From assembly GCA_036498725.1 (NCBI GenBank), contig DASYEY010000083.1:21674-85673 (forward strand): a stretch of 64,000 nt of DNA, written 5' to 3'. The notes below the pieces were generated by a model. It saw only the letters and a list, made by a program, of their open reading frames with translations. It made no database searches and was not told where the DNA came from. Position 1 is the first letter of the stretch. Each line of letters opens with the position of its first letter. Below, piece after piece: positions 1,203 to 64,000 of this stretch. Both the position numbers and the translations under genes were made by a program. The stretch is from Verrucomicrobiia bacterium. GTDB taxonomy: Bacteria; Verrucomicrobiota; Verrucomicrobiia; Limisphaerales; UBA11358.

Positions 1203-2333
1203 ATGACCGATCCGCTGCCATCCTCACCCAGTCCGCGCCGCATCCTCGTGCGCAGCGTGAACTGGCTGGGTGATGCCGTGATGAGCACGCCGGCGCTCCG
1301 ACGATTGCGTGAACGATTTCCCGATGCCAGCATCACTTTGCTAACGCCGGCTAAATTGGCCGGCCTGTGGGAACATCACCCGGCGATTGACGAAATCATT
1401 TCATTTACTGCCGAAGAAAATATTTTTGCTGTCGCAAAAAAATTGCGCCCGGCGAACTTTGATTTGGCGCTCGTGCTGCCCAATTCGCCGCGTTCCGCGC
1501 TGGAAACCTGGCTGGCTGGCATCCCCCAACGCATTGGCTATGCGCGTCCCTGGCGGAATTTTTTCCTGACCCGCACCGTCGCCTCCCGGCCGGAAGCGGT
1601 AAAAATGCACAAGCGATCCACGGCAGAAATTCATCAATTGATCGCACAGCCAGCTGGCAGGGGAAATCCAAAACCAAAAATCCCTCAAGCGGCGCATCAA
1701 ATATTTGAGTATCTGCATTTGACCGCCGCGCTGGGCGCGAATTCCGAACCGCTGGCGCCACAATTGTTCGTCACACCGGAAGAAATGGCGGCCGCCAAAA
1801 CGAAATTCGGTTTGGATAAAATCTCCGGGCCTATTTTCGGACTGAATCCCGGGGCGGAATATGGCCCGGCCAAACGCTGGCCGGTTGAAAAATTTATCGC
1901 GGCCGCCACAGAAATCCACCAACACACGGATTGCGTCTGGATATTATTCGGCGGCAAGGGCGACGCCGAATTAGGTGCACAAATTGAAGCTGGAACCAGG
2001 AATTTAAAATTTAAAATTTTAAACTTAACCGGCCAAACATCCCTGCGCGAACTTATGGCGTTGCTAAAGCTTTGTCGCGTTCTCCTAACGAATGATACTG
2101 GCCCTGCTCACGCCGCGGTCGCGTTAAATACCCCTTTGGTCATCCCCTTTGGCAGCACTTCGCCCGAATTGACCGCCCCGGGTTTGCCGGGCGATCCCCG
2201 AAATCATCTGCTCCAGTCTGACGCCCCATGCTCGCCCTGTTTCCTGCGTGAATGCCCGATTGATTTCCGTTGCATGAACGACATCACGGTCGAACGCGTA
2301 GTGAAAGCCGTTTTGGCGGCGGCCAACCAATAA
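1203..2333 (+). CDS. Glycosyltransferase family 9 (ADP-heptose:LPS heptosyltransferase, WaaF-like)
   Basis: The N-terminus 'RILVRSVNWLGDAVMSTPALRRLRERFP' and 'LLTNDTGPAHAAVALNTP' are GT9 hallmarks. It starts 4 nt after the previous gene. Confidence 0.8.
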   Translation: MTDPLPSSPSPRRILVRSVNWLGDAVMSTPALRRLRERFPDASITLLTPAKLAGLWEHHPAIDEIISFTAEENIFAVAKKLRPANFDLALVLPNSPRSALETWLAGIPQRIGYARPWRNFFLTRTVASRPEAVKMHKRSTAEIHQLIAQPAGRGNPKPKIPQAAHQIFEYLHLTAALGANSEPLAPQLFVTPEEMAAAKTKFGLDKISGPIFGLNPGAEYGPAKRWPVEKFIAAATEIHQHTDCVWILFGGKGDAELGAQIEAGTRNLKFKILNLTGQTSLRELMALLKLCRVLLTNDTGPAHAAVALNTPLVIPFGSTSPELTAPGLPGDPRNHLLQSDAPCSPCFLRECPIDFRCMNDITVERVVKAVLAAANQ

Positions 2334-2365
2334 AAAAAAGCCGCCGGATTGCTCCGGCGGCTTCG
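2331..2365. terminator. Bidirectional rho-independent terminator between convergent GT9 gene and ilvC
   Basis: The GC hairpin agccgccgga-ttgc-tccggcggct (2339-2362) is preceded by an A8 run, which reads as a U-run on the minus strand, and is followed by tcgatattt. Confidence 0.7.
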
Positions 2366-2402
2366 ATATTTAAATCGGAAATCGCGATTCCGAAATCATC
2401 AA

Positions 2403-3425
2403 TCAATAAGCAGCTTGCGCGCCCTTGATGGAACGCTTTTTCATCCACGGCATCATGCCACGCAGTTTGGCACCCGTCTTTTCGATCGGATGCGTTTCGC
2501 CCTTCTTGAGCAACGCATTGTAACGTTTGTAACCGCCTTCGTATTCTTTGACCCAATCTTTGGCGAACTTGCCGGACTGGATGTCCTTGAGCGCCGCTTT
2601 CATGCGTTTTTTCACGCTGGCGTCAATGATCTTCGGACCAACGCTGACGTCACCCCACTTGGCGGTTTCAGAGATCGAGAAACGCATGCCGCTGATGCCG
2701 GCCTCGTTCATGAGGTCGGCGATCAACTTCAATTCATGCAAACATTCGAAGTAAGCCATTTCCGGTGAATAACCGGCTTCGACCAACACTTCAAAACCAG
2801 CTTGCACCAGCGCGCTCGCGCCGCCGCAGAGAACAGTTTGTTCACCGAACAAATCGGTTTCGGTTTCTTCCTTGAAGTTGGTTTCGAGAACACCAGCGCG
2901 CGTACCGCCGATACCCTTGGCCCAGGCGAGCGCAATCTTTTTCGCGTCCTTCCCGGGGTTTTGGTAGATGGCGATCAAGCTCGGCACGCCCTTGCCTTCA
3001 GTGTATTGACGGCGAACGGTGTGGCCCGGGCCTTTCGGCGCGACCATGATGATGTTCACGTCCTTCGGCGGGACGATGGTCTTGAAATGGATCGAGAAGC
3101 CATGGGTGAACACGAGGGTCTTGCCCTTGGTCAGGTTCGGCTTGATGTCCTTCAGATAGCACGCGCCCTGCTTGGTGTCCGGCAGCGCGACCATGATGAC
3201 GTCAGCCTGTTTCACCGCTTCCGCAGTGCTAACGACCTTGAAACCTTTTTCCTTGGCGACCGGAATAGACTTGCTGCCTTCGTAAAGGCCGATGATGACC
3301 TTGAGGCCGCTGTCTTTGAGGTTAAGCGCGTGCGCGTGGCCTTGGGAGCCGAAACCAAGCACTGCGAGGGTTTTATTTTTCAACACGCCGAGATCGGCGT
3401 CTTTGTCGGTATAGACTTTTGACAT
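2403..3425 (-). CDS. ilvC: Ketol-acid reductoisomerase
   Basis: '[21 protein letters not shown]' is the NADPH-binding site, and similarity to class I KARI runs along the full length. Confidence 0.95.
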
Positions 3426-3464
3426 AAAATGATTGAGTTGGTTAAAAATTGTCGAAACGTTTGC

Positions 3465-3938
3465 TTACTTCCGCGGCAAGGCCACCTGGCCGGTGCGGGT
3501 GATTTCCTGCACGCCAAATGAATTCATCAAGTCGAGGAATTTCTCCACCTTGCTGCCGTTGCCAGTGATCTCGATGGTCAGCGATTTCGGCTGCACATCC
3601 ACGATCTTGGCGCGAAAAATATCCGTGATCTGCATCACTTCGGCGCGCGACTTGGAATCCACCGCGATTTTCACCAGTACTAGTTCGCGGTCCACCGCTT
3701 CACCAGCCCGGAAGTTTTGCACCTTGATGACATCGGGCAGGCGGTTGAGTTGTTTGACGATCTGCTCCAATTTGGCTTCATCACCCGTCGTGACAATGGT
3801 CATCCGCGAGAGGCCGGCATCGTGCGTGGGACCGACGTTGAGCGTATCAATGTTGTAGCCACGTCCACTGAATAAACCAGCCACGCGCGTAAGCACGCCG
3901 AACTTGTTCTCAACCAAAACTGAAATGGTATGTCGCAT
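3465..3938 (-). CDS. ilvN: Acetolactate synthase small (regulatory) subunit
   Basis: 'HTISVLVENKFGVLTRVAGLFSGRGYNIDTLNVGPT' is the ACT domain. I chose the ATG at 3938 (MRHTISV...). The ORF track extends to 3992, but that N-terminal extension is not family-like. Confidence 0.9.
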   Translation of the reverse strand: MRHTISVLVENKFGVLTRVAGLFSGRGYNIDTLNVGPTHDAGLSRMTIVTTGDEAKLEQIVKQLNRLPDVIKVQNFRAGEAVDRELVLVKIAVDSKSRAEVMQITDIFRAKIVDVQPKSLTIEITGNGSKVEKFLDLMNSFGVQEITRTGQVALPRK

Positions 3939-5423: not shown

Positions 5424-6623
5424 ATGAAAATAATCAGGTTATTATTTGTGCTCGGCATGTTGTTTTTTTCCTGTTTAGCGATTACCACTCGCGCCGATAT
5501 TTTGGAGCATTGGACGACCAGCCAGATCTCAACTAATTCCATCAATGACATTCTTTATGGCGGCAATCGCTTTGTTGCCACTGCAACTTACTATGATGAA
5601 GGATTGATCTATTCATCGGCTGACGGATTGCATTGGAGCTTGAGTGCTCTCGACAACAGCTCGTGGGGACTACAAATGTTTTATGCCGATGGGCAATTCA
5701 CCGGCATCAGCAGCTTTGGAATCATTGTGACCTCCACAAACGGTGACGATTGGATGTTTAATCATAACCTGCCATCTCCATACGCCAATCGTGGCATTTA
5801 TTCTTCTACTATAGGTTCTTATGGGATAGCTCATGGCAATGATACGTATGTAGTGGTTGGTGACACCAATGGTGTTGGCTACATAATCACTTCCAGTGAT
5901 GGCACGAATTGGAGTCGGGTGACATCGGTGGCAGTACAAAACCGGGCCCATATTGGAAGCGTTGCTTATGGTTCTGGAGTATTCATCGCATTGGGTGATA
6001 ACGACGGCTGTGCCTACAGGGGGGTAATTCAAACACTGCCGCCCGGCGGACCAGGCTCATTCGTTTGGACTTCGTTTTCCATACCTACCAATAACCAGGT
6101 ATTTTATAATAGTGGATTATTCATGGTGGCTTACCAAGGAACCAATCTGATCTCAAACGATGGCTATAATTGGACGCTTATCCCCACAGGAATTACCAAT
6201 AAATTACAGAATATTACCTATGCCGGCGGTTTATTTATGGCCAATTCAGGACCTTGCATGGCGACTTCAACGGATGGAACAAACTGGTTTCAATATTCAG
6301 AATATCTATACGGCCACGGCTTTGCTTCAGATGGCATCCGCGTGGCAGGCTACTACAATGACAATGCGCTTACACCAAACGCATTTATTTACACATCGGA
6401 TCCATTGGTAGATGTGGGCATAACAAATTCGGCCCCCCTATATATCACAGTATCCGGCTTGATTGGACGTAATTATCAAATTCAATCTACCGACAATTTG
6501 CTTGGGCAGAATATCTGGCGCACAAACACAACTTTACAATTGACCAATACGCCCTGCGTGTGGACGAATTCAACAGCGACCAATTCACAAGGGTTTTATC
6601 GCGGCGTCCTGCTGTCGCCTTAA
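5424..6623 (+). CDS. Secreted BNR/Asp-box repeat protein (beta-propeller-like) with FYR-type C-terminal tail
   Basis: The signal peptide is 'MKIIRLLFVLGMLFFSCLAITTRA'. SxDGxxW-type motifs recur (SSADGLHW, TSTNGDDW, TSSDGTNW, ISNDGYNW, TSTDGTNW). The C-terminus is '...NSQGFYRGVLLSP'. The gene is visibly more AT-rich than its neighbours. Confidence 0.65.
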   Translation: MKIIRLLFVLGMLFFSCLAITTRADILEHWTTSQISTNSINDILYGGNRFVATATYYDEGLIYSSADGLHWSLSALDNSSWGLQMFYADGQFTGISSFGIIVTSTNGDDWMFNHNLPSPYANRGIYSSTIGSYGIAHGNDTYVVVGDTNGVGYIITSSDGTNWSRVTSVAVQNRAHIGSVAYGSGVFIALGDNDGCAYRGVIQTLPPGGPGSFVWTSFSIPTNNQVFYNSGLFMVAYQGTNLISNDGYNWTLIPTGITNKLQNITYAGGLFMANSGPCMATSTDGTNWFQYSEYLYGHGFASDGIRVAGYYNDNALTPNAFIYTSDPLVDVGITNSAPLYITVSGLIGRNYQIQSTDNLLGQNIWRTNTTLQLTNTPCVWTNSTATNSQGFYRGVLLSP

Positions 6624-10053: not shown

Positions 10054-10059
10054 AAATCA

Positions 10060-10135
10060 TCCTCATTCTCATCGTCGTCCTCGTTCTTGATTCTCCCCCA
10101 GCCTGCGAGGACGAGGACGACGATGAGAATGAGGA
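10060..10135. repeat. Long hairpin: 24-25 bp perfect inverted repeat of a (GAN/TCN)-rich motif
   Basis: The left arm cctcattctcatcgtcgtcctcgt (10061-10084) is the reverse complement of acgaggacgacgatgagaatgagg (10111-10134), with a 26-nt loop. A related motif lies at 63651-63677. Confidence 0.85.
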
Positions 10136-10189
10136 CGACAGCCAAGGTCGAAAAATATGAATGAGCGCAACCTTCAAATACAATAGTGG

Positions 10190-10335
10190 TGGGTGGAATG
10201 GGTTGCGCTGCGACCCATTATGACGGCAACGCCGGCACTTTGTGGTGGGCTCTGATATTTGGACGCGCAACAACTCATCACCTGACGCTACGCTCGGTGA
10301 CGATTTTGGCCTCAGCGCAGCCAAAGCCACCGTTA
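10190..10335 (+). ncRNA. Candidate structured RNA / structured repeat, copy 1 of 3
   Basis: Hairpins are H1 10197-10219, H2 10222-10236, H3 10275-10303 and H4 10305-10325. The conserved blocks actttgtgg and gcgcagccaaagccacc are present. Stems covary with the copies at 58137-58282 (-) and 63431-63580 (+). Confidence 0.45.
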
Positions 10336-10528
10336 GGGCCAACTGCAGGGAAAAGTTGCTGTTTTGTCCATTTATAAGCATGACGATGGCAGAAAAGTGA
10401 ACGCCTATTTAAATATTGGAGATCGACGGAGTCGCGCTCCGCCAAAAATAAACAATGAAGCTCCGCCCAGCCCTTTACGAGATAGTTTTTAAATTCTGCA
10501 TGGCCTTGAAGCCCATTTCAGCAGTAAG

Positions 10529-12781
10529 ATGACGAGACACAATCTGACTATGAAACATTCACCGACTCATATTGCTTTTCATCGCCTGACCTTCCATTGG
10601 CTGGCGTTGTCACTGATTTTCACTGGCGTCATGTTGCCGGCAATCCTCCGTGCCGAAGTTCGTCTGCCCCATGTGTTTGGCAGCCATATGGTTTTTCAAA
10701 GAGAAAAACCGCTGATGGTCTGGGGCTGGGCGACGCCCGGTGAAACCGTTACAGTACAATTAGGCACGGCCAGCCAGACGGCGACCGCCAATGAACAGGG
10801 AGAATGGAAAGCGACCTTGCCGGCCATGGATGCCGGTGGTCCTTATACGCTCACCGTGAGTGGTTCAAGCACGGTCAAATACGATGACGTCATGGTCGGC
10901 GAAGTTTGGTTGTGCTCCGGCCAATCAAACATGGAATTCGGCCTCGGCCGTACTGATCATGCCAAAGACGAGATTGCCAATGCGAATCATCCCGGCCTCC
11001 GCTTGTTGATGGTGGATAACCGCTGGACACCGCAACCGCAAAACGATTTCGTCGGCACGTGGAAAGTATGCACGCCGCAATCCGTGGCCGAAGGTGGTTG
11101 GGATGGTTTTTCCGCTGCCGGATATTTCTTTGGACGCGATCTTAATGAAAAACTGGGCGTGACTATCGGTTTAATCGAAGCGGATTGGGGCGGCACGCGC
11201 ATCGAATCATGGACGCCGCCGGAAGGTTTCGCCGCGGTGCCCGCTTTAAAAAAAGAATATGAACGCGAACAATTAAGCGATCCCCGGACGCCGCTGCATC
11301 AACAACAACTGTCACAAACTTTGGATCAATACGCCCAATGGGTTCAAGCTGCGCGCCAGGCCATGACGGCCAAAACCGTAGTGCCACCAGTTCCCACTTA
11401 TCCCCCCGACCTGCTGGCCCCGCATGATTTGCAACAAGCCACGGCCCTTTATAATGGCATGATTTATCCGCTCGCACCGTTTGCGTTGCGCGGAGCCATC
11501 TGGTATCAGGGCGAAGCGAACGAATCCGAAGGGATGCTTTACGCAGAACGCATGAAAGCACTCGTCAACGGCTGGCGCACGGTCTGGAATGAAGGCGAAT
11601 TTCCCTTCTATTTTGTGCAGATTGCACCGTTCAACTATGGGGATAATCCGGAAAGACTCGCTGAACTTTGGGAAGCTCAAACCACTGCGGCTCAAGTAAT
11701 TCCGAACGTCGGCATGGCAGTTGTGAACGACATCGGCAATCTCCACGACATTCATCCCAGCAATAAACAAGATGTTGGCCATCGCCTGGCGTTGCTGGCA
11801 CTGGCCAAAACGTACGGGCAAAAAGATTTGGTATTCAGCGGCCCGACCTTTGATTCACTGACCATTGAAGGCAATACCCTTCGCATAAAGTTTGCCAACG
11901 TTGGCGGCGGACTGGCCAGCCGCAATGGCCAGCCATTGGATTGGTTTGAGATCATTGATGCGGATACCGGCGGATTTGTCAAAGCCGATGCCAAGATTGA
12001 AGGCGACAGCGTGGTGCTCTCGGCCGCAGGTGTGCCCCACCCCGTGGCGATGCGTTTTGCCTGGAGCAGCCTCGCTGAACCCAACCTGATGAATATGGAA
12101 AAACTCCCCGCGGGTGCCTTTCGGGCGGGAACCCTGCCCAAACGCGACTGGGTCGGCATGAACGTTCCCGAAGCAAAAGACTATCAAGTCGCCTATGATT
12201 TGGATCTGACGAAATTGGGCTCAACCATTTCCTATGACGTGGATAACCATCAGAACTTGAAACATCCTTTCGATCGCATCGCCTATTTTATCGAACTACA
12301 GGATGCCAACTGGAATACGCAAGACCTCTATGTCTCCATGGATGCCTTCACGGATGATGCCGGCAAGATCGGCGTGCCGGTGTTCGGTTCGGGCGCACAT
12401 TTCCAACAAAACGTTGCCAATCTAAATGTCTATTCCAATGTCAAAGGTATTGTCACCGGCACCCACTTGAACGGCGGCAACATCGAATTCTGGCCGAACA
12501 ACTATGCGCAAGCCAACGGCGCCAATGTGCCTAATGCCTCTTCGGAAACTTTTGATTTTGGTGACCAGCCCAATTTTCCTGAGGATGGCTACGGCTGCAT
12601 GCAGGTGCACAACCATGACGCCCATCAGACCTTGTTTGCCATTAATCACTGGCGTGAAGGTGCACATGCCGACATCGGCATCGGCAACCAGCCAAAAGAC
12701 AGTCCCGACTGGACCTTCGCCAGCAACGCCGGCAGCTATCATGTGATGCACCTGCGCGTATTGGTGCATTACCGTCAGTGA
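10529..12781 (+). CDS. Sialate O-acetylesterase-like (SGNH/DUF303-type) secreted esterase with ~200-aa C-terminal extension
   Basis: 'LPHVFGSHMVFQREKPLMVWGWA.PGE.VTV', 'VGEVWLCSGQSNMEFGL' and 'GAIWYQGEANE' are hallmarks of 9-O-acetylesterases. There is a signal/anchor segment. An alternative start is at 10550. Confidence 0.8.
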   Translation: MTRHNLTMKHSPTHIAFHRLTFHWLALSLIFTGVMLPAILRAEVRLPHVFGSHMVFQREKPLMVWGWATPGETVTVQLGTASQTATANEQGEWKATLPAMDAGGPYTLTVSGSSTVKYDDVMVGEVWLCSGQSNMEFGLGRTDHAKDEIANANHPGLRLLMVDNRWTPQPQNDFVGTWKVCTPQSVAEGGWDGFSAAGYFFGRDLNEKLGVTIGLIEADWGGTRIESWTPPEGFAAVPALKKEYEREQLSDPRTPLHQQQLSQTLDQYAQWVQAARQAMTAKTVVPPVPTYPPDLLAPHDLQQATALYNGMIYPLAPFALRGAIWYQGEANESEGMLYAERMKALVNGWRTVWNEGEFPFYFVQIAPFNYGDNPERLAELWEAQTTAAQVIPNVGMAVVNDIGNLHDIHPSNKQDVGHRLALLALAKTYGQKDLVFSGPTFDSLTIEGNTLRIKFANVGGGLASRNGQPLDWFEIIDADTGGFVKADAKIEGDSVVLSAAGVPHPVAMRFAWSSLAEPNLMNMEKLPAGAFRAGTLPKRDWVGMNVPEAKDYQVAYDLDLTKLGSTISYDVDNHQNLKHPFDRIAYFIELQDANWNTQDLYVSMDAFTDDAGKIGVPVFGSGAHFQQNVANLNVYSNVKGIVTGTHLNGGNIEFWPNNYAQANGANVPNASSETFDFGDQPNFPEDGYGCMQVHNHDAHQTLFAINHWREGAHADIGIGNQPKDSPDWTFASNAGSYHVMHLRVLVHYRQ

Positions 12782-12994: not shown

Positions 12995-13140
12995 TAGCCT
13001 GACAGCTCCGTTAGGAGCGAAATCTTTGTAGCAATAAATCCAAAAAATCTCCAGCTCCAAAGGAGCGGCATATGTCGCTCCTATGGAGCTAGTATTTCTT
13101 GTGTGCTGATTCTACAAATATGTCGCCCCACTGGGGCTTT
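12995..13140. repeat. Cluster of four short REP-like GC hairpins
   Basis: The stems are gctcc-N4-ggagc (13005-13018), gctcc-aaa-ggagc (13054-13066), tatgtcgctcc-tat-ggagc (13071-13089) and tatgtcgcccc-act-ggggc (13119-13137). The same unit type occurs at 58381-58427. Confidence 0.7.
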
Positions 13141-29628: not shown

Positions 29629-29884
29629 TTTTGAGGAGTGGCCTCGTCAGGTCCAGCACGTGAAATGAGGCAACTGGAAAGCGGCGGACTTAACCTTGCC
29701 GGGTTGAAGGTAATTTTCCAGAGCGCGGGAACCGGCGGCAAATGCTCTGATTTGGTGGGTTGACTATCCGTCGTTTACGCCAAAGCCTCAATCGTCTGAC
29801 CGGCGCTCCGTTGAGAATTTGTTCCGCGCGGATAAAACGAGCTGTCGCGAGCCGCCGCGCAACTGATTCCACCCAACCTCGTTA

Positions 29885-30619
29885 CTATGCTCCGCCGCTG
29901 GCAATTTTTTCCCGCGTGTTATCGACCTCCGATACGGAACCGGCCGAACGGTTTGCGGTGTAGCGCATGACCGCTTCCGTGCGACAGTGGACATGCAGTT
30001 TTTCATAGACCGTTTTCAGGTAGCTGCGCACAGTTTCGATACTCAGACGCATCTGGTCGGCAATCTCCTTGTTTGATAAGCCGCGCGACAACAAATCCAG
30101 CACCTCAATTTCGCGCGTGGATAAATGCGCCTGATTGCGTGGATTGGCCGGCGGCCGGCGGAATGAACGTACCACACGCCAGGCGATGGCGCTGCTCATC
30201 GGCGCGCCACCGTCCAGCACATCCACGAGAGCCGTCCGCAGATCCACCGGTTTTGAACGCTTGAGCAAATACCCGTCTGCGCCAGCCTCCAACGCGCGAA
30301 AAATCAATTCATCGTCATCTAATACGGTTAGAATGATAATGGGCGTCGTCGGCAATAATTCCTTTAGCCGCGAGGTGCACTCAATGCCTGACATGCGTGG
30401 CAGACGGATATCCATCAAGATCACATCCGGCCGCGCTTCGGGTATGGCAGCCACCGCTTCCTCGGCTGACGCACACGTGCAGGTGCACTTGAATCCCTCG
30501 AATGATTCGATGATTTGCACCCAACTTTGACATAAATCTTTTTGATCCTCCACCAAGGCCACACTGATCGTGACCGCAGCGTCAGATTTGACGGGAATGT
30601 TTTTCGAAAGCGATTTCAT
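29885..30619 (-). CDS. NarL/LuxR-family response regulator (RR1)
   Basis: The REC domain includes 'DVILMDIRLPRMSG' and 'ADGYLLK'. The GerE HTH is 'LSTREIEVLDLLSRGLSNKEIADQMRLSIETVRSYLKTVYEKLHV'. Confidence 0.9.
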   Translation of the reverse strand: MKSLSKNIPVKSDAAVTISVALVEDQKDLCQSWVQIIESFEGFKCTCTCASAEEAVAAIPEARPDVILMDIRLPRMSGIECTSRLKELLPTTPIIILTVLDDDELIFRALEAGADGYLLKRSKPVDLRTALVDVLDGGAPMSSAIAWRVVRSFRRPPANPRNQAHLSTREIEVLDLLSRGLSNKEIADQMRLSIETVRSYLKTVYEKLHVHCRTEAVMRYTANRSAGSVSEVDNTREKIASGGA

Positions 30620-55445: not shown

Positions 55446-55535
55446 GGAAGGGTGGCTGAGTGGTTAAAGGCATCTGACTCGAAATCAGAAGTACGGGTAA
55501 CCGTACCGGAGGTTCGAATCCTCTCCCTTCCGCCA
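55446..55535 (+). tRNA. tRNA-Ser (anticodon CGA), CCA encoded
   Basis: The acceptor stem is ggaaggg/cccttcc. The anticodon stem-loop is tctga-ctCGAaa-tcaga. There is a long variable arm (gtacgggtaaccgtaccg) and a T arm ggaggttcgaatcctc. The discriminator is g, followed by cca. Confidence 0.9.
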
Positions 55536-58090: not shown

Positions 58091-58136
58091 GTTTAATGCT
58101 TAGGGCGTGTCGTCGAGATGCTTTTGACACATAGCC

Positions 58137-58282
58137 AATGGGTGGCTTTGGCTGCGCTGCGGCCAAAGTCGTGGCCGAGCGTAGCGTCAGGCGACGAAAA
58201 GAACACGTCCAGTAACTGACCACGCCACAAAGTGACTGCTGCGCAGTCATAATAGGCCGCGGCGCGACCTATTCCACCCATT
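58137..58282 (-). ncRNA. Candidate structured RNA / structured repeat, copy 2 of 3 (inverted orientation)
   Basis: It is closed by a 9-bp helix aatgggtgg/ccacccatt (58137-58145 with 58274-58282). H1 is 58251-58273 and H2 is 58234-58248. The core ggtggctttggctgcgctgcggccaaagtcgtggccgagcgtagcgtcaggcgacga lies at about 58141-58196. Confidence 0.45.
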
Positions 58283-58340
58283 CTAGAATTTGTCTTCAAA
58301 ATGGCATTCCATTGGCAACGAAAGGGATTTCTTGATACTA

Positions 58341-58475
58341 GCCCCACCTTTTAAGGTGGGTTTACATGATGGCTCAATAAAAAGTCCCGTAGGGACGGCA
58401 GAAAAATTCTTTCGTCCCCCTGGGACTTTCATTTTCTAGACGATAATTATCCCAGTGTTAAAACACTGGGCTATT
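58341..58475. repeat. Cluster of short GC hairpins (REP-like)
   Basis: The hairpins are cccacc-ttttaa-ggtggg, gtccc-gta-gggac, cgtcccc-ct-gggac and cccagtgtt-aa-aacactggg. The unit style is the same as at 12995-13140. Confidence 0.65.
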
Positions 58476-61921: not shown

Positions 61922-63400
61922 ATGCAACTCGATCCAAAAATCCTTTACCAAGCGCTGCTCGCGCGGGACACGCGTTTTGACGGCACCTTTTTTACCGGGG
62001 TTACTTCCACCGGCATTTATTGCCGGCCGATCTGCCCGGTAAAACCGCCCAAGCTCGTAAACTGCCGGTTTTATGAACACGCTCCGGAAGCTGAATCGGC
62101 GGGATTTCGTCCCTGCCTCCGATGCCGCCCCGAACTGGCGCCGGGCAATGCTCCCGTGGATAATTCCAAACGGATCGCTCATCGGATTGTCCAACGCATT
62201 GAAGCCGGCAATCTCGAAGAAAAGGCGGCGCTGGAAGCGGTTGCCGACGAATTCAAATTAAGTTCGCGGCAAATCCGGCGCATCATTCAAAAAGAATTAG
62301 GCGTGGCGCCGATCCGGTTATTGCTCACCCGCCGGTTGTTATTGGCCAAGCAATTATTGACCGAAACAAAATTGCCGGTCATCGAGATCGCCTTTGCCAG
62401 CGGCTTCGCCAGTTTGCGCCGCTTTAACGATGCGTTCAACCGGCGCTATGGCATGCCGCCTACCCGCTTGCGCCGCTCCGCCGCCGCGAACGACGGGCCA
62501 ATGGCCAGCACGGATACCATCACCCTGCAACTGGCGTATCGTCCGCCGTACGATTGGCCGGGCGTGCTGGCTTTTCTCAAGACGCGCGAATTGAAAGGCG
62601 TTGAGTGGGTGACGGAACATTTTTATGCCCGCACAGTGCAGCTTGGCGAGCAGCGGGGTTGGATCAAAGTCACGCTGGCACCAAAGAAAAATGCGTTACT
62701 ATTGGAATTCACGCATAATTTGATCGCCGGTTTGCCAGCACTGTTACGACGGGTGCGGGATTTGTTTGATCTGGACGCACGACCAGACGTCATCGCCAAA
62801 CATTTCGAGCATGACCAACATCTGGCTTCGATCATCAAAGCCAATCCCGGACTGCGCGTACCTGGTGCCTTCCATGGCTTTGAACTCGGATTGCGCGCCA
62901 TCCTCGGCCAGCAGATCACCGTGAAAGCGGCCACAACCATCGCCGGGCGGATGGCAACCGCTTTTGGTGAACCGATCACCACGCCCTATCCAGAACTCAA
63001 CCGACTGACACCGTCGGCCGGGCGCATTGCAAAAGCCAGCGTGGATAGTGTGGCCAAGCTGGGTATCGTGAAGGCCCGTTGCCAAAGTTTGATCGCATTG
63101 GCCAAAGCACAAAAATCCGGAGAAGCATCGCTGGACGATGACACCCATTCCGATCCCGAAGAGATTATTCGACACCTGGTGACTTTGCCCGGTATCGGTC
63201 AGTGGACCGCGCATTATATTGCCATGCGAGCCTTGCGCTGGCCGGATGCTTTCCCCAAGGAGGACATTATCGTGCGCCGGGAGCTTGGTGGCGTTACGGC
63301 CAAACAAGCCGAAGAGTTGGCGAAAGACTGGCGTCCATGGCGAAGTTATGCGGTGCTGCACCTTTGGCGAAAAGCTAAACAATCATCAGCCGCTTTTTAG
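61922..63400 (+). CDS. Bifunctional Ada-N (Zn methylphosphotriester sensor)/AraC-HTH regulator fused to AlkA DNA-3-methyladenine glycosylase II
   Basis: 'RDTRFDGTFFTGVTSTGIYCRPICP' and 'GFRPCLRCRP' form the Ada Zn-binding part. 'IAFASGFASLRRFNDAFNRRYGMPP' is the AraC HTH. The C-terminal HhH-GPD part includes 'LPGIGQWTAHYIAMRAL..PDAFP..D'. Confidence 0.85.
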   Translation: MQLDPKILYQALLARDTRFDGTFFTGVTSTGIYCRPICPVKPPKLVNCRFYEHAPEAESAGFRPCLRCRPELAPGNAPVDNSKRIAHRIVQRIEAGNLEEKAALEAVADEFKLSSRQIRRIIQKELGVAPIRLLLTRRLLLAKQLLTETKLPVIEIAFASGFASLRRFNDAFNRRYGMPPTRLRRSAAANDGPMASTDTITLQLAYRPPYDWPGVLAFLKTRELKGVEWVTEHFYARTVQLGEQRGWIKVTLAPKKNALLLEFTHNLIAGLPALLRRVRDLFDLDARPDVIAKHFEHDQHLASIIKANPGLRVPGAFHGFELGLRAILGQQITVKAATTIAGRMATAFGEPITTPYPELNRLTPSAGRIAKASVDSVAKLGIVKARCQSLIALAKAQKSGEASLDDDTHSDPEEIIRHLVTLPGIGQWTAHYIAMRALRWPDAFPKEDIIVRRELGGVTAKQAEELAKDWRPWRSYAVLHLWRKAKQSSAAF

Positions 63401-63430
63401 CGTTTGATCATGGCATTGGCACATAGCTGC

Positions 63431-63580
63431 CATGGGTGAAATCGGTCGCGCTGCGACTGATTTTGCCTGTGCCACAGGCACTTGGTGGCATGCTTTTGTA
63501 GTGGGGCGCTCTATTTCGTCGCCTGGCGCTGCGCTCGGCGACGACTTTGGCCGCAGCGCAGCCAAAGCCACCAACTGGGC
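63431..63580 (+). ncRNA. Candidate structured RNA / structured repeat, copy 3 of 3
   Basis: Hairpins are H1 63438-63462, H2 63464-63478, H3 63515-63543 (perfect 8-bp stem) and H4 63545-63565. The blocks acttggtgg and gcgcagccaaagccacc are present. Confidence 0.45.
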
Positions 63581-63625
63581 CAAGGTGGCTGTGTTTTGCC
63601 ATGGTTATTTAGAACTTGTCCGAAA

Positions 63626-63705
63626 AGAAATCAGCGGCGATTTCTGCTCTTCCTCATCGTCATCATCGTCGTCCTCGAAAAATCTTCTATAACTCGAGGA
63701 GGATG
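63626..63705. repeat. Two hairpins, the second built on the same (TCN)-rich motif as 10061-10084
   Basis: The first is gaaatc-agcggc-gatttc (63626-63643). The second has cctcatcgtcatcatcgtcgtcctcga (63651-63677) pairing imperfectly with tcgaggaggatga (63693-63705). Confidence 0.6.
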
Positions 63706-63735
63706 ACCAAGGAGGCGCATCAAATTGTTTCCCCC

Positions 63736-63915
63736 TAGAGCGGTTCAAGAAATACTGTAGCCATTCGGGAAGAAAAGAACAGCTGCGGTCTTTTTGGGTT
63801 TTGGCGTCGTTTCGGCTCCGTCACAGGTTTTTTCAAACCTGCTCCTTCGCCGAAGCCTCGCCAAAACCCAAAAATCTTCGCTCCGAACGGCCACAGTATT
63901 TCTTGAACCGCTCTA
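63736..63915. mobile_element. ~180-bp extended palindrome / MITE-like element
   Basis: The outer arms tagagcggttcaagaaatactgt (63736-63758) and acagtatttcttgaaccgctcta (63893-63915) are perfect. Inner arms tttttgggttttggcg / cgccaaaacccaaaaa pair, as do the central caggttt / aaacctg. No ORF is present. Confidence 0.5.
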
Positions 63916-64000
63916 AACAGTCCGTGTACGGCTCTTTATTGCCTTCAATCTCATGTGCAAGCGCCCGCAAATCTTCGACAACCAGGCGGGAGCAAGGGTG

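Follow-up and report, generated by a model that had tools for sequence, protein, structure and literature searches.

The structured element that follows an ada/alkA fusion gene in the window (the whole stretch of DNA analysed here, 64,000 nt in length) is probably one member of a lineage-specific family of head-outside REP heterodimers, non-autonomous and REPIN/BIME-like, that is carried by uncultured Verrucomicrobiae. It belongs to a repeat family whose copies share a single fold with covarying stems, bear REP-type ends and are dispersed between genes. The structure is real and conserved and the element is of an ordinary type; a dedicated regulatory RNA it probably is not.

Extent and fold of copy 3

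The ada/alkA fusion gene (61922–63400, forward strand) encodes Ada_Zn_binding, HTH_18 (AraC HTH), AlkA_N and HhH-GPD domains and ends in a TAG stop codon at 63398–63400. An earlier note on this DNA, in which the element was counted as copy 3, had it starting about 30 nt past this stop on the same strand, and the core does indeed begin at 63432–63435, 31 nt downstream. The same note bounded the element at 63431–63580; this interval takes in the multi-hairpin part (∼150 nt, within 63431–63583) but falls short of the full unit, which really extends from ∼63401 to 63607 or 63612. The span of ∼63401–63612 follows from homology with the arms of sister copies and from pairing of the outer stem, and the full-length element abuts the alkA stop codon, its first base coming right after the stop. 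The C-terminal tail of AlkA is within the length range of its homologues, so the alkA gene was not altered by insertion of the element. AlkA has the same sequence as a protein on a contig of JGI metagenome 3300036781 and as an NCBI protein labelled 'MAG TPA: Verrucomicrobiae bacterium', and the next homologue after these is 76% identical, which indicates that no close relative has been sampled.

Over its full length (63401–63612, forward strand) copy 3 folds into a single long branched hairpin (RNA −109.4 kcal/mol, z −6.1; DNA −54.4 kcal/mol, z −4.9). Sister copies L045 and L046 have 5′ arms (CGTTTSATCATGRCRTYGGCACRTARCT..ATG) homologous to that of copy 3 (63401–63434). The latter pairs with the 3′ arm (63573–63612, AACTGGGCCAAGGTGGCTGTGTTTTGCCATGG..), which is partly common to copy 1, L045 and L044a. 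Upstream of the core, ∼30 nt are common to sister copies, in one version among copy 3, L045 and L046 and in another between L043 and L044a, and ∼30–40 nt are common to them downstream of it. The outer arms pair with each other (22 pairs for copy 3, 20 for L045); the long-range arm pairing of copy 3 amounts to 21 nt at 71%, and some minimum-energy folds make use of long-range pairing.

Between these arms, the left REP-like unit (63435–63463) is made up of a head, GGTGA, which is a mutated form of the family's GGTGG, and of hairpin H1 (63439–63449 paired with 63453–63463, loop GCT, apex TCGCGCTGCGA). H1 had been described as a 10-bp stem; the hairpin is there, but in copy 3 its length is 11 bp, one G-T pair included. 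It is followed by H2 (63464–63480, 7 bp, three pairs of which show compensatory double changes among the copies), by a poorly conserved linker (63481–63515) without conserved pairing, and by H3 (63516–63544), whose perfect 8-bp stem (63516–63523 with 63537–63544) and inner GCG/CGC extension are just as first described and whose apex is again GCGCTGCGC. The inverted right REP-like unit (63545–63572) consists of H4 (63545–63567) and CCACC, and the closing stem is formed by GGTGA (63435–63439) with CCACC (63568–63572). The RNA fold of 63432–63581 reaches −79.7 kcal/mol (z = −6.2; 0 of 200 shuffles as good), and the reverse strand of the same interval folds at z = −4.1.

A small hairpin lies at 63578–63590, and further hairpins occupy 63626–63645 and 63659–63707. 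Two hairpins had been reported downstream of the element, and the structures are real, but the one taken as the first belongs to the element's own 3′ arm. The 180-bp palindrome said to come after them was found at 63736–63915 (−102.9 kcal/mol, z = −12.9).

Copies of the family

Searches of the window with blastn and a covariance model, filters off, gave exactly three full copies, the number implied when the present element was called copy 3, at ∼10185–10342 (+), 58130–58285 (−) and 63428–63583 (+), which are mutually 73–78% identical. The core of copy 1 (GGTGG...CCACC, 10192–10331, +) lies in a divergent region between a 131-aa minus-strand gene and a SASA esterase gene (start 10550). That of copy 2 (58141–58278, −) lies ∼50 nt past the stop codon of an alpha-L-fucosidase gene encoded on the opposite strand, and its full model match (58130–58288) begins ∼40 nt past the same stop. 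A probable decayed relative at 29741–29883 (−) retains a near-intact left REP unit, GGTGGAATCAGTTGCGCGGCG, situated ∼10 nt past the stop codon of a response-regulator gene, and ends in ..CAACCCACC, the remainder having diverged. Four more full copies (L043, L044a, L045 and L046) and a half copy (L044 6131–6204) come from further contigs of that JGI metagenome (3300036781), and other metagenomes contain two copies, L037 and L040. The family is accordingly tallied as ten copies, nine of them full (three in the window, four on sister contigs and two from other metagenomes) and one half. There are three copies and the relic within 64 kb, and at least eight copies in the contigs of one metagenome population; REPs in general are numerous, with tens to thousands of copies per genome.

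Subfamilies are apparent, copy 2, L043 and L044a being 87–90% identical and copy 3, L045 and L046 83–87%, and no pair of copies exceeds 90%. The family looks old on the strength of this ceiling, of the relic and of the half copy. Mean identity is 79% within the genome versus 72% between organisms. That divergence within the genome should be near that between organisms can also mean purifying selection on functional RNA, and it is one of the points in favour of a different reading, in which the copies are a structured non-coding RNA family (cis-acting 3′ or 5′ UTR modules, or multi-copy small RNAs), H4 and CCACC form a specific protein- or RNA-binding site, selection acts at the RNA level and spread is secondary. 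We regard this reading as unlikely. The half copy and the relic speak against it, as does Rfam, in which no family matches the element; the whole window gives just one tRNA at gathering thresholds, and for 63300–64000 at E ≤ 10 there are sub-threshold chance matches to microRNA and sRNA models only.

In public data the family is very rarely encountered. The refined nine-copy covariance model recovered no further significant copies. The invariant 19-mer has no true occurrence in 185,579 species genomes, a collection that evidently lacks (or masks) the host or a close relative; 35 single matches to it in unrelated taxa are due to chance, and none extends past ∼25–37 nt. A scan of a metagenome collection with a core query of 22 specified bases gave four loci, of which L038 and L039 are chance 23-mers and only L037 and L040 are genuine. 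Viral contigs, plasmid DNA and phage DNA contained no match to the element.

Gene callers translate the element as 'hypothetical proteins', and it is for this reason that a profile of one frame (51 aa) retrieved five more ORFs, four of which could be traced to DNA and led to four full copies and one half copy; six element-derived ORFs occur among 5.8 billion proteins. A search of representative proteins with a reverse-frame ORF returned unrelated tandem-repeat ORFs only. It might be supposed from such annotations that the element is a small protein gene, namely an 86-aa ORF (63432–63692, a JGI 'hypothetical protein') with 'homologues' P0122–P0126, given that the core opens with an ATG, that the frame is open through the element and that the profile of this reading frame finds the five other annotated ORFs. 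However, indels of +2, −2 and +1 between copies break the frame while nucleotide conservation continues downstream of them, and this excludes a coding function. Several frames are moreover open on both strands, the retrieved ORFs begin and end at unrelated positions, the substitutions in the stems are compensatory, and there is no Pfam match. A small protein gene is effectively refuted by the frame-breaking indels and retains practically no probability.

Conservation and covariation

An alignment of the nine full copies (∼145 columns, mean identity 77%) yields a single fold with RNAalifold, consisting of a 5-bp closing stem (GGTGG/CCACC) and four hairpins with stems of 10 bp (H1), 7 bp (H2), 12 bp (H3) and 9 bp (H4), together with an unconserved linker of ∼38 nt. 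Standard pairs make up 95.8% of the 384 cells, compared with 91.6 ± 0.7 when shuffled and 26–52% with slid partners. Compensatory double changes involve 7 pairs and 18 cells, a level reached in 0 of 500 shuffles, and one H1 pair is seen as GC, CG, AU, UA and UG. The covariation is strong in H1–H3, with the compensatory changes of the left unit internal to H1, and H4 is invariant. This pattern favours local hairpins over the single long one of a canonical REPIN.

Mean pairwise identity is 98% for H4 plus CCACC, 85% for H3, 82% for H1, 70% for H2 and 53% for the linker. Conservation is asymmetric between the two ends: the right unit is 98% identical over all copies, those of other organisms included, and the left unit 82%. 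On the modelled strand there are 16 G-U cells versus 7 A-C cells, an excess that comes from H1 only, H3 having 3 G-U versus 5 A-C.

Several of these observations would suit the structured non-coding RNA family introduced above. Covariation in H1–H3 is strong, a 28-nt block is almost unchanged within and between organisms while the linker has drifted, and the ratio of G-U to A-C cells fits a role at the RNA level as well as one at the DNA level. Against this, the G-U excess is confined to H1, and single-stranded DNA hairpins read by a transposase would predict covariation and tolerance of G-T pairs equally well. A variant of the RNA reading supposes a domesticated module in which the invariant 28-nt H4-CCACC block docks one RNA-binding protein or RNase and so sets the 3′-end fate of unrelated transcripts (alkA, argS and those of glycan-degrading enzymes), the covarying hairpins serving only as a scaffold; we consider it very improbable. 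For the REP heterodimer that is favoured here, selection that keeps the hairpins forming would account for the compensatory changes, and, by analogy with RAYT–REP systems, the hairpins may be kept because the mobilising enzyme recognises a single-stranded DNA form.

REP-like ends

A REP is by definition a palindrome preceded by a 5′ GT(A/G)G tetranucleotide, and the Stenotrophomonas REP class SM1 starts with GGTGG (PMC3686654). The ends of the element have this anatomy. The left end reads G-GTGG-AATGGGTTGCGCTGCGACCCATT and the reverse complement of the right end G-GTGG-CTTTGGCTGCGCTGCGGCCAAAG, and in both a GGTGG head (GT[A/G]G) abuts a 9–11-bp palindrome with the apex TGCGCTGCG, giving units of 28–29 nt that fall within the 20–40 nt of a REP. 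GTGG heads are retained in seven of the nine left units (copy 3 has GTGA and L037 GTGC) and in eight of the nine right units. The motif GGTGG-N7-TGCGCTGCG occurs 7 times in the window where 0.98 would be expected, twice per copy and inverted, and the apex is also carried by H3.

The two units stand in inverted orientation, heads outside, are separated by a spacer of ∼85 nt with two hairpins, and are bracketed by partly complementary arms of ∼30 nt. Left and right units have the same head and apex and different stems, matching at 17–22 of 29 positions in eight of the nine copies; the value for L044a is 10/27, because a 2-nt deletion throws off the ungapped comparison. A REPIN is an inverted REP doublet in which the spacer is conserved only to preserve the hairpin (PMC3337134). 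Inverted units, spacer and arms are here conserved together in nine copies, as in a REPIN, and the two REPs are not of the same group and do not form one long near-perfect hairpin. Heads-outside dimers, heterodimers, 20–100-bp spacers with two stem-loops and dimers inside longer palindromes have all been described, and GTAG REPs abound in the verrucomicrobium Opitutus terrae (PMC3733652). Given that inverted palindromes headed by GT(A/G)G are the defining anatomy of REP dimers and REPINs (PMC3686654, PMC3337134, PMC3733652), the structure is explainable at the DNA level too.

Inverted ends may also invite comparison with a conventional MITE, that is, a deletion derivative of an IS that is moved as dsDNA by a DDE transposase via terminal inverted repeats and leaves target-site duplications. 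The size of ∼200 bp, the intergenic positions and the subfamilies would agree with such an origin, and so would terminal inverted repeats of an imperfect kind (the units mostly matching at 17–22/29, with outer arms that pair in most copies) and the direct repeat TTTAG found on either side of copy 3 (63396–63400 and 63608–63612). The other copies, however, have no repeat at matching positions, and the 5-mers shared between flanks are at chance level (3.6 expected per copy), so that flanking direct repeats are inconsistent. No IS or transposase with these ends occurs in ∼130 kb, the plasmid and phage DNA searches were negative, and a GT(A/G)G head abutting a palindrome is a signature of REPs that is atypical of DDE-type inverted repeats. 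A conventional MITE is for these reasons quite improbable.

Genomic settings

All ten copies lie between genes, in a genome with ∼90% coding sequence, and eight of them occupy unidirectional or convergent gene settings. REPs are found mainly between unidirectionally or convergently transcribed genes (PMC3733652), and the extragenic, mostly unidirectional or convergent placement seen here is that of REPs. Copy 3 and L043 stand between convergent genes; L044a, L046, L037 and L040 stand between unidirectional genes in the sense orientation and L045 between unidirectional genes in the antisense; copy 2 is antisense past the fucosidase stop codon; and copy 1 and the L044 half copy make up the two in divergent promoter regions. 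In terms of orientation, ∼8 of the ten are sense to neighbouring transcription and two (copy 2 and L045) antisense, and several lie within 0–70 nt of a stop codon. The genes next to the copies have no functional relation to one another (alkA, ArgRS, amidase, fucosidase, GH2, SASA, oxidoreductase). L037 carries an orthologue of the SASA gene of the window (∼74% aa identity), with the element downstream of the gene there and copy 1 upstream of it here; L037 shares only this gene with the window, and L040 shares nothing.

The window as a whole is a glycan-degradation region with genes for GH63, GH3, GH97, GH78, a fucosidase and a SASA esterase, and it also encodes two-component regulatory systems and proteins with N-terminal methylation or PEP-CTERM motifs.

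The prevalence of the sense orientation and the proximity of several copies to a stop codon could again be taken to favour a structured non-coding RNA family. The orientation bias suits a role at the DNA level just as well, and many REPs are in any case transcribed and may act as RNA (PMC3733652). That reading is difficult to reconcile with copy 2 and L045, which are antisense to both of their neighbours, with the two copies in divergent promoter regions, with the functionally unrelated neighbouring genes and with the absence of a consistent promoter or terminator from the copies. Nor is a dedicated RNA gene of ∼150 nt or a 3′ UTR regulator the preferred explanation of the element, there being two antisense copies, two divergent ones, a half copy and positions that are not syntenic.

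No terminator-like site occurs from the alkA stop codon to the element, which makes read-through from alkA the simplest expectation, and copy 3 is likely transcribed as an alkA 3′ UTR. The earlier note had allowed for a promoter of the element's own; this is unlikely, since no sigma-70-like site is found upstream of copies 1 and 3 and that of copy 2 is weak (9/12). Terminators of the GC-rich hairpin and T-run type are not consistent among the copies: copy 1 has none, copy 2 has none inside the element, and copy 3 has two weak 5-bp hairpin/T-run matches at 63578–63602, which is no more than shuffles give.

No transposase is encoded in the window, and neither Y1_Tnp nor any other transposase appears in the gene tables of L036 and L041–L046 or among the ORFs of L037 and L040, which together with the window amount to ∼130 kb. 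RAYTs, the REP-associated tyrosine (Y1/HUH) transposases, are usually single-copy. The link to a RAYT is the weak point of reading the element as a REP dimer.

Certain other structured elements were considered and rejected. An integron attC site would follow promoterless cassette ORFs in an array beside intI and carry RYYYAAC/GTTRRRY cores; no such core is seen in the alignment, no integrase is found, and the copies, on different contigs, adjoin unrelated genes of housekeeping and glycan degradation. For retron RNA, guide RNA of the IS200/IS605 type and bridge RNA, there is no reverse transcriptase, TnpB, IscB or IS110 gene nearby, and the sequence that follows CCACC shows partial conservation, unlike a guide.

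Relation to known systems

The element resembles HH heterodimers (PMC3686654, PMC3733652) in several features. These are the 28-nt unit in which a GT(A/G)G head (GGTGG, also that of S. maltophilia SM1) is joined to a 9–11-bp palindrome, the inverted units with heads outside and partners that differ in their stems, the spacer in the 20–100-bp range with two stem-loops, the dimer within a longer palindrome, and the intergenic, mostly unidirectional or convergent gene settings. The element differs from those heterodimers in that its sequence is unrelated to any class compared, its spacer and arms are conserved in one unit of ∼200 nt, and its right unit is near-invariant while its left unit drifts with compensation; an associated RAYT was not seen in the ∼130 kb, and the family has very few representatives in public data.

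REPINs of Pseudomonas and Enterobacteria (PMC3116915, PMC3337134) are alike in being inverted REP doublets that replicate as a unit, in a spacer conserved mainly for the hairpin, in the lack of identical copies, in the presence of subfamilies and decayed singletons, and in an apparently long, vertical persistence. In canonical REPINs, however, the left and right REPs belong to the same sequence group and pair into one near-perfect hairpin, whereas the element has four local hairpins within a 5-bp closing stem and REPs that are ∼59–76% alike in most copies. The BIMEs of E. coli and MITEs of the ERIC and Correia types are similar mosaics of palindromic modules, 130–200 bp long, in transcribed intergenic space, and a second hairpin type, GAGGACGACGATGA, accompanies three of the copies described here. 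By analogy with these elements (reviewed in PMC10969869), an effect on the 3′-end stability or processing of the upstream mRNA might be expected; the present element has no sequence similarity to them, no TA or otherwise consistent target duplication, and no recognised IHF site or promoter.

The family may have spread in the genome as single-stranded DNA hairpins, which would have been handled by a RAYT encoded elsewhere. At the alkA locus, GC-rich hairpins between convergent genes could act as a 3′-end barrier, as a stabiliser or as a weak terminator, and any such effect on the alkA 3′ end would be a by-product of insertion and not the work of a purpose-built alkylation-response riboregulator. 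What is predicted for alkA is a highly structured 3′ UTR rather than a specific alkylation-response switch.

REP/REPIN–RAYT systems have mostly been studied in Proteobacteria, and the present family adds a well-defined, structurally conserved REP dimer to the Planctomycetes–Verrucomicrobia–Chlamydiae (PVC) superphylum. Specialists may take note of the phylum, of the unusually clear covariation and of the asymmetry in conservation between left and right, the last of which (an invariant right unit and a covarying left one) could show what the cognate transposase or binding protein reads. Recognition of the ∼200-nt unit, now annotated as 'hypothetical proteins' (P0121–P0126), removes false genes. 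The element also breaks short-read assemblies, with contigs ending within or beside copies, and this explains contig ends in these Verrucomicrobiae bins.

Repeat modules and their arrangement

GAGGACGACGATGA and TCATCGTCGTCCTC ('acidic/serine-like' arms) form the basis of a second type of palindromic repeat, which lies on the 5' side of copy 1 of the GGTGG-headed element (window 10057–10138) and on the 3' side of copy 3 (63648–63707); on L044, a metagenomic contig from outside the window, it occupies 6207–6291, immediately next to the half copy of the element. Because the second type adjoins all three of these element copies, the arrangement suggests that the two modules are found in a mosaic, BIME-like association.

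Very short GC-rich hairpin clusters at 13005–13091 and 58384–58426 may represent a further small palindromic repeat class of this genome. Three GCTCC-N3/4-GGAGC hairpins lie precisely at the break of two JGI contigs (∼13087–13124), and copy 2 (58141–58278, minus strand) is adjoined by two GTCCC-N3-GGGAC hairpins.

Downstream of copy 3 stands a 180-bp imperfect palindrome (63736–63915) whose outer arms, 33 nt long, match at 94 per cent and whose 40-nt inner arms match at 78 per cent; its predicted RNA fold reaches −102.9 kcal/mol (z −12.9). No further copy of it was present in the sequence examined. The centre of the palindrome (∼63840) is where JGI contig Ga0376653_0001010 stops, and a stop codon at ∼63836 closes a minus-strand ORF that enters at the window end and crosses the right arm. 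At the gathering threshold, Rfam matched nothing in the whole 64-kb window besides a tRNA gene (55446–55532, plus strand).

An altered copy and a probable decayed copy of the element

The head of copy 3 (63435–63439) reads GGTGA rather than the GGTGG of the family, which places an A–C mismatch in the closing stem and breaks the GT(A/G)G tag of the left unit. If mobilisation needs the heads, copy 3 is probably immobile. The stretch at 29741–29883 (minus strand) is a probable decayed copy: its left unit, GGTGGAATCAGTTGCGCGGCG, carries one mismatch to the family pattern and lies ∼10 nt past the stop codon of a response-regulator gene (29885–30619, minus strand), and the stretch ends in ..CAACCCACC. 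Its interior is diverged, scoring 7.8 bits by covariance model with a fold z of −0.7.

Assembly and annotation at the repeats

L042, a Logan contig (SRR11833507) belonging to the same organism and assembled independently from short reads, begins inside copy 1 at window ∼10198, which is consistent with a repeat that collapses assembly graphs; the contig also shows that the organism is present in a second public dataset. Element copies have been rendered by the JGI and NCBI gene callers as 'hypothetical proteins' of 53–86 aa (P0121–P0126; window 63432–63692, plus strand); such calls are artefacts, produced by open frames within a GC-rich repeat. JGI annotated a 45-aa ORF across the second-type palindrome at 10.1 kb.

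A SASA-family esterase gene has a copy of the element as its neighbour in the window (10550–12781, element 208 nt upstream) as well as on L037, a contig from another metagenome (1383–3620, element 57 nt downstream, ahead of pgk). The esterase is the sole gene of L037 syntenic with the window, and the presence of the element beside it in both places is due either to chance or to separate insertions near this one gene.
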